Positions 12,601 to 14,288 of a DNA stretch of 64,000 nt are shown piece by piece (position 1 is the stretch's first letter; every line of letters begins with the position of its first letter). The notes beneath the pieces were generated by a model that was not told the DNA's origin, did no database searches, and worked only from the letters and a program-made list of their open reading frames with translations. This DNA comes from Escherichia coli 042. GTDB taxonomy: Bacteria > Pseudomonadota > Gammaproteobacteria > Enterobacterales > Enterobacteriaceae. The stretch lies in assembly GCF_000027125.1 (NCBI RefSeq), contig NC_017626.1; one strand, written 5' to 3'. The position numbers were made by a program, and so were the translations under genes.

Positions 12601-14288
12601 ATGAGGATCTCTTTGGTAGTAGTAACACGATATGCCGCGCCATCGCTGGCGGAGACGGTCAGTAAATAGCGGCTCGGTTTATCGGCGGCGGGAAGGTTTA
12701 ACGCTACATTGCCTTTATCGTCAGAAACAGCGTCGCTACCTTCCAGCGACACCGGGAAACGTCCGGCATAACGCAAATCGTTACCAACCATCGAAAGTTG
12801 CTGAGCGCGCAAACTTAACTGCACGCTGGCATCTTTTACCGGTTCGCCATCCGGATAGAGTAGTTGCAGTTTGCCGCTGACCGCTTCGCCAGTTTTGAAA
12901 TCTTTTTTGTCGAGGGCTAAGCCAATCTCAAAATGTGGTTTGATGTAGTTGGCTACGCGAAAACTGCTGCTATAGACCTGTTTGCGGTAAGCCAGGCGTA
13001 ACTCATAACCTCCGGCGACGGCATTTTCTGGCAGGCGGAAACTCCCCTGCCCGCCATTACGCGCATCCAGCGTGACATTGATGGTTTGCAACAGACTGCC
13101 GTTGGCGTCCAGCACTGAAAGCTTCGCCGGGGCGCTGACGATGGGGGATGAATGCAACGGGTCGTGGAACTCGCGGCCCATCACTTTTACATCAACACGA
13201 TCGCCTGCACGATACAGAGGGCGGTCGGTAAAGATATACAAGCGGGTGTTGTAGATTTCGCTTTCGTAGAAAAAATTCTCGGAGACAAAAACGCCGCCTT
13301 CAGCATCTTTACCCAGAATGTATGAACGTTCCGGCGATATATGTTGTAACTGCAAGGTACCGCTGTCATCGGTCACACCGCGGGTCATCACGCCAAGACC
13401 GTCAGTCCACAAGATCTCTGATCCCGGCTTCGCTTCACCCTGTTTTTTACCCGCGGTCCACACCAGGAGCTCGTTACCCGACACTTTGCTAAGCGCCACG
13501 GTATCAGAGACAAATACCACCGTCGTCGCCCGATATCCACCGACCATCGCCTCGACGAGGTACAGTCCCGGCTCTTGTTTGCCGAGAGGAATATAGATGT
13601 TACCCGGCTGCGGCGAGATGAAATTGCTGGATGCGCCTTCCAGTTTTACCCCTTGCTGCGGCTCGACCGGTTTAGCCTGCCATAGTGGGTAACGGAACTG
13701 TTCCACCAGTGGATATTTTTTCAGCGGTGAAAACTGGCTGTTCTGTACATAACGGGAAGGTTTAATAATGGCATTGCCGAGCTGTAATTCGGGTAACGCC
13801 TGAGTCACATTCTGCCGAGACTGAGAAGAAAAAGTACGCTGCATCACGCGGCGAGATTTGCCGTACCAGTTATCCCACAGCCAGGTCAGCGTATTGTTCA
13901 GCCCGTCGCCCAGATATTGCGGTTGCACCACAATGCGATGCAGATTTTTCTGCTGGCGCAAAAATGCCATCGGGTCAGGAATACGATACAGACGAACGTC
14001 CACACCGCCGTACTCTTCCATCTGATAGCGCCGATAATCACGCCCCGGCGCTTCCAGTCGCACTTTCGCCTCTTCACTGCTGCTAAAACTGCTGTCAGCG
14101 AGCAAAAAGAATGTTCCCCCGGCGGGCGGCGCATAGTTGCTGGAAGGAAGCGAATCATCAGCATTAGCAAGCCCTGTTCCCACAAGAGACAGGGACAAGC
14201 ACGCTGCTATCGCGCCAGAAAATTTAAACGATAAATGCCAATGAAATTGGGATTGGAATCGTTGGGTATCCATCGGGTGTCCTTCCAT
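9669..14288 (-). CDS. yfaS: Alpha-2-macroglobulin family protein YfaS, apparently intact full-length ORF (start codon uncertain)
   Basis: Uninterrupted 1539-aa ORF with N-terminal signal-like hydrophobic segment; size typical of bacterial A2M homologs. Confidence 0.8.

Follow-up and report, generated by a model that had tools for sequence, protein, structure and literature searches.

A probable translation start for the Escherichia coli macroglobulin gene yfaS inside the upstream gene yfaT

We investigated the junction between yfaT and yfaS in a 64,000-nucleotide (nt) stretch of DNA from Escherichia coli 042 (NC_017626.1), hereafter the window, in a segment with the gene content gyrA-yfaA-yfaT-yfaS-yfaQ-yfaP, where the genes concerned all lie on the minus strand. 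Our comparative analysis indicates that yfaS, which encodes a type II bacterial alpha-2-macroglobulin (A2M), most likely starts at the ATG at 14273 (14271..14273, -), inside yfaT, so that the two genes would overlap by 67 nt (14207..14273, -), with yfaS read in the -1 frame. Within the proposed overlap, one frame carries the last 22 codons and the stop codon of yfaT, and the -1 frame carries the opening 22 codons for the yfaS signal peptide. The candidate start codon is made by the yfaT codons CGA-TGG (Arg-Trp), and 6 nt upstream of it lies a Shine-Dalgarno (SD)-like sequence, GGAAGGA (14280..14286, -), made by yfaT codons for Trp-Lys-Asp. Starts are numbered here relative to the end of the yfaT stop codon, which puts this one at -67; a start codon followed by an open frame occupies this position in all 87 comparable loci.

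The longest open reading frame (ORF) of yfaS (9669..14288, -; 1539 codons) begins at another ATG, at -82 (14286..14288, -), made by the yfaT codons ACA-TGG, whereas yfaT ends in ...IYRLNFLAR with the stop TAG at 14209-14207. A sequence-only reading had reported an 82-nt overlap between the 3' end of yfaT and this ORF, and the ORF coordinates bear it out (ATG 14288, stop ending at 14207); the peptide that it gave for the first 27 codons, which lie in a different frame, agrees exactly with the translation from 14288. That reading offered two explanations, a genuine and coupled overlap or a non-ATG start farther downstream, just before the hydrophobic segment. The former is supported by our analysis and the latter is not, and the second ATG (67 nt) is a likelier start than the first (82 nt). 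From 14273, yfaS would extend over 9669..14273 (-), that is, 1534 codons and the stop TAA at 9671-9669.

There are five candidate in-frame starts for yfaS, namely, ATG at -82 (14288), ATG at -67 (14273), ATA at -4 (14210), TTG at +8 (14198) and GTG at +23 (14183), from which the prepeptides up to the cleavage site would be 43, 38, 17, 13 and 8 residues long, respectively. No ATG, GTG or TTG occurs in the yfaS frame between -67 and +8, and both TTG 14198 and GTG 14183 sit within the hydrophobic core. We place the start at 14273 because the position is conserved and has an SD 6 nt upstream, whereas the ATG at -82 has no SD within 15 nt upstream, varies among relatives, and would be a less likely or minor start; some initiation at 14288 may occur beside that at 14273. 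An open 27-codon extension is unremarkable in itself: when the E. coli yfaT tail is recoded synonymously, the frame is open from -67 about 17% of the time.

Comparison of yfaS with its counterparts in E. whittamii, Escherichia sp. E1V33 and E. albertii gave ratios of nonsynonymous to synonymous substitution rates (dN/dS) of 0.05-0.07, at dS of 0.3-0.8. The gene is thus functional, under strong purifying selection and in need of a working start, and these values rule out that yfaS is decaying as a pseudogene in Escherichia. The copy in the window is intact (1534 or 1539 codons), and that of K-12 MG1655 is a RefSeq pseudogene with an internal stop. The window shares 99.9% identity with strain GF60 and 97.8% with K-12, and the 170 nt around the junction (14147-14316) are identical among E. 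coli strains (L093-L095) that diverge by 2-3.5% over the surrounding 1 kb.

Conservation of the proposed -67 start and constraint on yfaT

To assess the overlap across genomes, we used 80 loci of YfaT relatives from species-representative genomes and 10 more reached via distant representatives (metagenomes and genomes). Over its last 178 codons, yfaT could be aligned gap-free in the window and the first 80 loci; 87 loci were comparable, having the same C-terminal register and an A2M gene downstream. The -67 codon is ATG in 83 of these loci and GTG in the other 4, and the frame is open into the macroglobulin in every one. Under synonymous recoding with each group's own codon usage, a start and open frame at -67 would be expected in about 2% (enterics) to 7% (Pseudomonas) of cases, and both are thus conserved far beyond expectation, as in genuine long out-of-frame overlaps. 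The -82 codon, by comparison, is CTG in six loci (L055, L056, L080, L088, L090 and L091), and in the Salmonella-type locus L092 the frame from -82 meets a stop codon before it reaches -67.

A second candidate start is widespread among these loci. In 70 of the 87 loci, including those of Pseudomonas, Yersinia, Edaphovirga and Aeromonas, the yfaT stop is TGA and overlaps an ATG at -4 (an ATGA junction), after which a classical signal peptide follows, such as MTGARMLRLCARIPLLLALLLPLATVNA↓EDS (here and below, the arrow marks cleavage). Orthologues starting consistently downstream of 14207 were what the sequence-only reading had named as evidence against an overlap, and this is half the case: most Pseudomonas orthologues have the ATG at -4, at which E. 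coli now has ATA. In Escherichia, Superficieibacter and the Salmonella-type locus, the yfaT stop is TAG or TAA, and ATG(-4) has become ATA. Altogether, ATG(-4) is absent from 17 of the 87 loci in several independent lineages: the Escherichia clade, P. flavescens, a Pseudomonas metagenome-assembled genome, P. schmalbachii/P. jinjuensis, P. oryzagri, Enterobacillus and three distant metagenomic lineages.

In five loci (L007, L021, L034, L039 and L089, a set that comprises Superficieibacter electus, P. schmalbachii, P. jinjuensis and the last two loci), no canonical start occurs between -67 and the cleavage site; in S. electus, none is present from -67 to +212. The coding sequence of the hydrophobic core spans the yfaT stop in L086-L089. 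With no other start available, or with the core spanning the stop, -67 would be obligatory in these lineages; in such genomes, gene callers took downstream starts that leave no signal peptide. Natural controls are provided by three distant relatives that have a downstream A2M gene and no start codon at -67, the Arg codon there being CGC or CGT. Their frames contain stops in L083 and L084, and in L085 the frame is open with no start at that site. A further locus, from Candidatus Methylobacter oryzae (L079; 5197-5356), is the only one with no macroglobulin downstream on the contig, where AT-rich sequence follows, and both upstream ATGs are lost there (CAC-TGG and CGC-TGG). Neither these natural controls nor the fact that ATG(-4) was lost several times independently depends on any P value.

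Synonymous variation in yfaT was compared among 24 representatives with less than 90% nucleotide identity. It is suppressed most strongly at codons -32 to -19 (14261..14302, -), with a synonymous difference rate of 0.16 compared to about 0.4 over the rest of yfaT; the upstream gene thus shows reduced synonymous change inside the overlap. The codons of this core are CTG CAA CAA CTy ATG ACA, followed by TGG AAG GAC ACC CGA TGG, which encode the protein motif W-K-D-T-R-W, and then ATA CCC. Several of them are fixed or nearly so despite low background use: CGA at Arg -22 (23 of 24; background 0.02), ATA at Ile -20 (22 of 24; 0.04), ACA at Thr -27 (17 of 17; 0.06), CAA at Gln -30 (24 of 24; 0.21) and CCC at Pro -19 (24 of 24; 0.27). 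The rare codons ACA, CGA and ATA are fixed also in GC-rich genomes, and the overlap has no substitutions relative to E. albertii, although the gene-wide dS is 0.8. Judged by this codon choice, the -67 start appears to be maintained by selection, with the ATGs stemming from wobble bases of yfaT codons. The rare codons ending in A or C near the start are also consistent with selection to keep the initiation region otherwise unstructured. One gene would have its ribosome-binding site and start codon written into a conserved protein motif of its neighbor, with rare codons fixed for this purpose, in an arrangement that spans Enterobacterales, Pseudomonas and more distant lineages.

Proposed signal peptide and predicted hairpin

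A start at 14273 would give YfaS a signal peptide of 38 residues (14160..14273, -), cut at ANA↓DDSLPSSNY, with the first mature codon at 14159. The motif AxA↓(D/E)D..PS.Y at the mature N-terminus is kept in all homologues, with E. coli cleavage at ANA↓DD, and the cleavage site of P. aeruginosa MagD that aligns with it is AAVQA26↓EDT (PMC3735191, Table 2). A charged n-region (Arg and Lys22) is obtained only from the starts at 14273 or 14288; the prepeptides from 14210, 14198 and 14183 contain neither Lys nor Arg. The hydrophobic core of YfaS begins before the yfaT stop. The overlap-encoded peptide is less acidic and more basic than recoded controls, with 1 acidic residue in E. coli against 3.5 expected (P = 0.018) and a mean net-charge z of +1.5, and this bias is what the n-region of a signal peptide requires. 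In the Escherichia clade, the Leu codon TTA yields Lys22 just ahead of the hydrophobic core; the CTG of Pseudomonas yields Glu.

Two other export routes were considered. A lipobox-like IAAC (14199..14210, -; Cys25 of the 1534-residue form) could in principle make YfaS a lipoprotein like YfhM/ECAM in E. coli only, given that the Cys is unconserved, being Tyr in Escherichia sp. E1V33 and absent outside Escherichia. A Tat signal was rejected: the consensus S/T-R-R-x-F-L-K is not matched by E. coli TQRF, and in Pseudomonas about 25 residues and several charges separate the TRR from the core.

The start region is also predicted to be structured. A consensus fold (RNAalifold) contains a hairpin with a 5' arm at -80 to -56 (14262..14286, -), which includes the SD and ATG 14273, and a 3' arm at -35 to -12 (14218..14241, -), in yfaT codons -12 to -4, where a pyrimidine tract (UUUUCU or CUUCC) faces the SD. 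The purine tract of the SD, GGA(A/G)GGA or GGAGAGA, was seen in every lineage examined, and its pairing with pyrimidines is kept in distant lineages. Pairing holds in 95.6% of cells (57 distinct sequences) compared to 33-48% with slid partners, and 5 pairs are changed on both sides; of 500 shuffles, 6 reach this number. The hairpin is the minimum free energy fold in E. coli, at -12.5 kcal/mol, and in Pseudomonas, at -20 to -25 kcal/mol (z = -1.9 to -3.6). The fold of the whole 160-nt E. coli junction shows no excess stability (z = 0.7). A search of 13800-14900 on both strands with the Rfam covariance models gave no match with E up to 1, and no promoter-like site was found at the yfaT/yfaS junction.

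Taken together, these features suggest a model of translational coupling by unmasking. The SD and start of yfaS would pair with the last approximately 12 codons of yfaT until ribosomes finishing yfaT open the hairpin; a ribosome would then start yfaS at ATG 14273, guided by the SD at 14286-14280 inside the W-K-D-T-R-W codons. The part of the 38-residue Sec signal peptide encoded in the overlap would be its n-region together with the first of its hydrophobic residues, and cleavage at ANA↓DD would release a mature periplasmic A2M that is the same as that of relatives. In the clade of Escherichia, Superficieibacter and the Salmonella-type locus, the change of the yfaT stop from TGA to TAG or TAA would have turned ATG(-4) into ATA, leaving -67, a site that itself appears to be old and widespread, as the sole usable start.

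Competing readings and annotation of the junction

Several observations weigh against a start at 14273. In each of the five E. coli genomes inspected (L001, L002 and L093-L095), the RefSeq/PGAP annotation starts yfaS at GTG 14183, and a search of article texts found no experimental start-site data for yfaS and nothing about the junction; one matching paper gives the operon only as an entry in a table (PMC4448311). The stability of the E. coli hairpin does not exceed that of shuffled sequence (z = 0.2). The hairpin also demands a purine at -67, which pairs with a Tyr wobble base, and conservation of this position alone is accordingly no proof of start function. The compared loci are related and mostly from Pseudomonas, and binomial P values, which count related sequences as independent, overstate significance. 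In Pseudomonas, ATG(-4) gives a good signal peptide, and MagD of PAO1 is annotated with one of 26 residues, so the -67 start may be minor or unused there. Finally, the signal peptide of YfaS was assessed heuristically.

Among the other readings of the junction, one takes ATG 14288 as the start, with the full 82-nt overlap, possibly beside 14273. This is the longest ORF, most loci have an ATG at -82, which the rare codon ACA supplies, and the CA-rich sequence upstream is conserved as well. We nevertheless regard it as unlikely, considering the lack of an SD and the variation at -82 described above; moreover, an exact-sequence look-up found no database protein with the corresponding N-terminus, MEGHP.

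According to a second reading, 14261-14302 is an element acting at the RNA level, either a structure or a set of RsmA/CsrA ANGGA motifs (CAUGGAAG, GAUGGAUA), and the ATGs are by-products. The mag operon of P. aeruginosa is regulated by RsmA, with a published binding site in the magA leader (PMC3735191). Two wobble A's do generate AUGGA motifs, and both the modest covariation of the hairpin and its need for a purine at -67 are in keeping with such an element. This reading, however, does not explain the open frame into the A2M in all 87 loci, the avoidance of acidic residues or the synthesis of the protein in lineages that have no other start, and the GGA motifs lie in the predicted stem rather than in loops. 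As a replacement for a start at 14273 we hold it improbable, to about the same degree as the start at 14288, but an RNA element and a start at 14273 are mutually compatible.

Somewhat less probable still is that E. coli ribosomes ending at the yfaT stop re-initiate on a near-cognate AUA. The sequence ATAG (14207..14210, -) consists of the TAG stop and the preceding A, and its ATA at 14210-14208, which replaces the ATG of relatives, would be a relic of an ATGA junction, with an overlap of 4 nt. Every lineage in which TGA changed to TAG or TAA still has an A ahead of the stop, its last codon being CGA or CAA, and a complete n-region follows the ATA in Superficieibacter (SRQPFSR) and the Salmonella-type locus (TRYR). 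Against this, AUA is a very weak initiator, the 17-residue prepeptide that it would give in E. coli has no positive charge, and the route is closed to lineages with CTG at -4 and a core spanning the stop (L021, L034 and L086-L089). Re-initiation at AUA may be a minor route in E. coli.

The annotated start itself, GTG 14183 (14181..14183, -; or else TTG 14198), with no overlap and an accidental upstream open frame, appears very improbable to us. Long annotated overlaps (over 60 nt) are mostly start-site mispredictions, and 1504-residue models that begin at this GTG are common in databases. The GTG, however, lies within the signal peptide and leaves only MGTGLANA, 8 residues (13 from TTG 14198), before the conserved cleavage site, and would therefore leave without a signal peptide a protein whose P. 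aeruginosa homologue is periplasmic (PMC3735191). Neither codon is shared with E. albertii, E. whittamii or Escherichia sp. E1V33, S. electus has no canonical start between -67 and +212, and the fixed rare codons of yfaT would be left unexplained. The RefSeq start is thus probably wrong and removes the export signal.

A programmed -1 frameshift at U UUA AAU (14228-14222), yielding a YfaT-YfaS fusion that needs no yfaS start, deserves hardly any credence: yfaS is in the -1 frame, the slippery-type heptamer is in the right register and a small 6-bp hairpin is predicted 5 nt downstream (about 14198-14216), but E. coli ribosomes shift poorly at X XXA AAU, the hairpin is weak, and the heptamer is present only in Escherichia and Salmonella-type loci, being replaced by C UUA AAY in Superficieibacter and A CUG AAC in Pseudomonas and absent from the other lineages without ATG(-4).

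GenBank and other public models of E. coli YfaS include both the 1504-residue form (GTG +23) and a 1534-residue form (ATG -67), in one cluster of 40,950 members, and the sequence of the 1534-residue GenBank model is exactly that of the YfaS proposed here. The NCBI annotation of Aeromonas cavernicola already uses the -67 start. A protein search with the 96 N-terminal residues of YfaS matched fragments only. In metagenomic contigs L086/L087 (3717-3759) and L088 (2798-2816), the called macroglobulin start lies downstream of the MagC stop and the signal peptide is cut off; the core of the lost signal peptide spans the MagC stop, and the error is the same as in E. coli RefSeq. The 1504-residue RefSeq model, spread over thousands of E. 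coli genomes, thus describes a macroglobulin without its export signal, and the comparative evidence favors the 1534-residue form.

Operon context and comparison with the mag operon

YfaT (14207..14830, -; RefSeq-type coding sequence, 207 residues) is a MagC homologue with a DUF1175 match (PF06672, E = 4e-58) and a weak NlpC/P60 signal; its longest ORF (14207..14857, -) reaches up to GTG 14857. YfaS, the MagD homologue, has the macroglobulin domain set, with Pfam matches to MG2 (8e-25), A2M_BRD (8e-18), A2M (9e-13) and bMG10 (2e-6), and no CxEQ thioester motif (C.EQ) was found in the 1534-residue product. No NCBIfam model matched either protein. The operon neighbors of yfaS are genes of the DUF2138, DUF1175, YfaQ and YfaP families, and it does not adjoin pbpC, according to the RefSeq annotation of the identical region in GF60 and of K-12. 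By domains, absence of CxEQ and neighborhood, the locus belongs to the type II A2M (YfaS/MagD) operon family; whether YfaS also has the signal peptide of this class depends on the start chosen.

At the yfaA/yfaT junction, the yfaT ATG lies on the yfaA stop in an ATGA overlap (14830-14827), at the yfaS/yfaQ junction (9666-9671) the TAA stop of yfaS is followed directly by the GTG of yfaQ, and at the yfaQ/yfaP junction (8012-8021) 4 nt separate the yfaQ stop from the yfaP ATG. An ORF of 105 codons with a TTG start (13917-14234, +), antisense to the yfaT/yfaS junction, is probably spurious. If Escherichia and Superficieibacter are set aside, E. coli YfaT is closest to Pseudomonas proteins (70-76% identity) and not to those of other Enterobacterales, suggesting that the operon may have been transferred horizontally.

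In gene families and order, the E. coli operon resembles P. aeruginosa magABCDEF, which encodes a type II A2M complex (MagC = PA4490, MagD = PA4489): YfaA corresponds to MagB (DUF2138), YfaT to MagC (DUF1175), YfaS to MagD (A2M without CxEQ), YfaQ to MagE and YfaP to MagF. Experiments place P. aeruginosa MagD in the periplasm or at the inner membrane, and a signal peptide is predicted for it (PMC3735191, PMC5764988). The E. coli operon differs in having five genes, and its annotation shows no magA-like gene in first position. MagD differs in its short signal peptide of 26 residues, consistent with a start at the ATGA junction, the ATG of which E. coli has lost. Whereas 4-nt ATGA coupled pairs make up the junction in most relatives, as at yfaA/yfaT in the window, the E. 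coli yfaT/yfaS junction reads ATAG, and its proposed start lies 63 nt farther upstream, with an SD of its own.

Coupling through an unmasked ribosome-binding site is known from the E. coli infC-rpmI-rplT operon and from the coat and replicase genes of RNA phage MS2. As in those systems, the SD and start of the downstream gene would be sequestered by a distal segment of the upstream gene, whose translation would open the predicted pairing; a difference is that the E. coli yfaT/yfaS hairpin is weak and known by prediction. The junction also resembles long (over 60 nt) same-strand out-of-frame overlaps in its length, its -1 frame and the suppressed synonymous change upstream, and differs from most long annotated overlaps in that here the non-overlapping annotation appears to be the misprediction. 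Thus, on comparative grounds, the E. coli yfaT/yfaS junction is probably a true long out-of-frame overlap in which the ribosome-binding site lies inside the upstream gene. The arrangement is of a known kind and the mechanism is not new; the finding is an annotation correction and a well-supported, deeply conserved example.

The retention of both the -67 and the ATGA starts in Pseudomonas, under apparent selection, suggests dual initiation. As a tentative and rather doubtful extension, the MagC/YfaT-MagD/YfaS family might have two conserved starts, one at -67, driven by an SD masked by a hairpin that only ribosomes translating yfaT open, and one at the ATGA junction, used by SD-less re-initiation, giving two precursors, with lineages of the E. 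coli type having lost one of the two starts. If so, the n-regions of the precursors would differ by 21 residues, setting the expression ratio or the targeting of the protein to soluble and membrane-associated pools. For research on the Mag complex, the proposed overlap provides a concrete, testable reason to revisit how the synthesis of MagD is tied to that of MagC.

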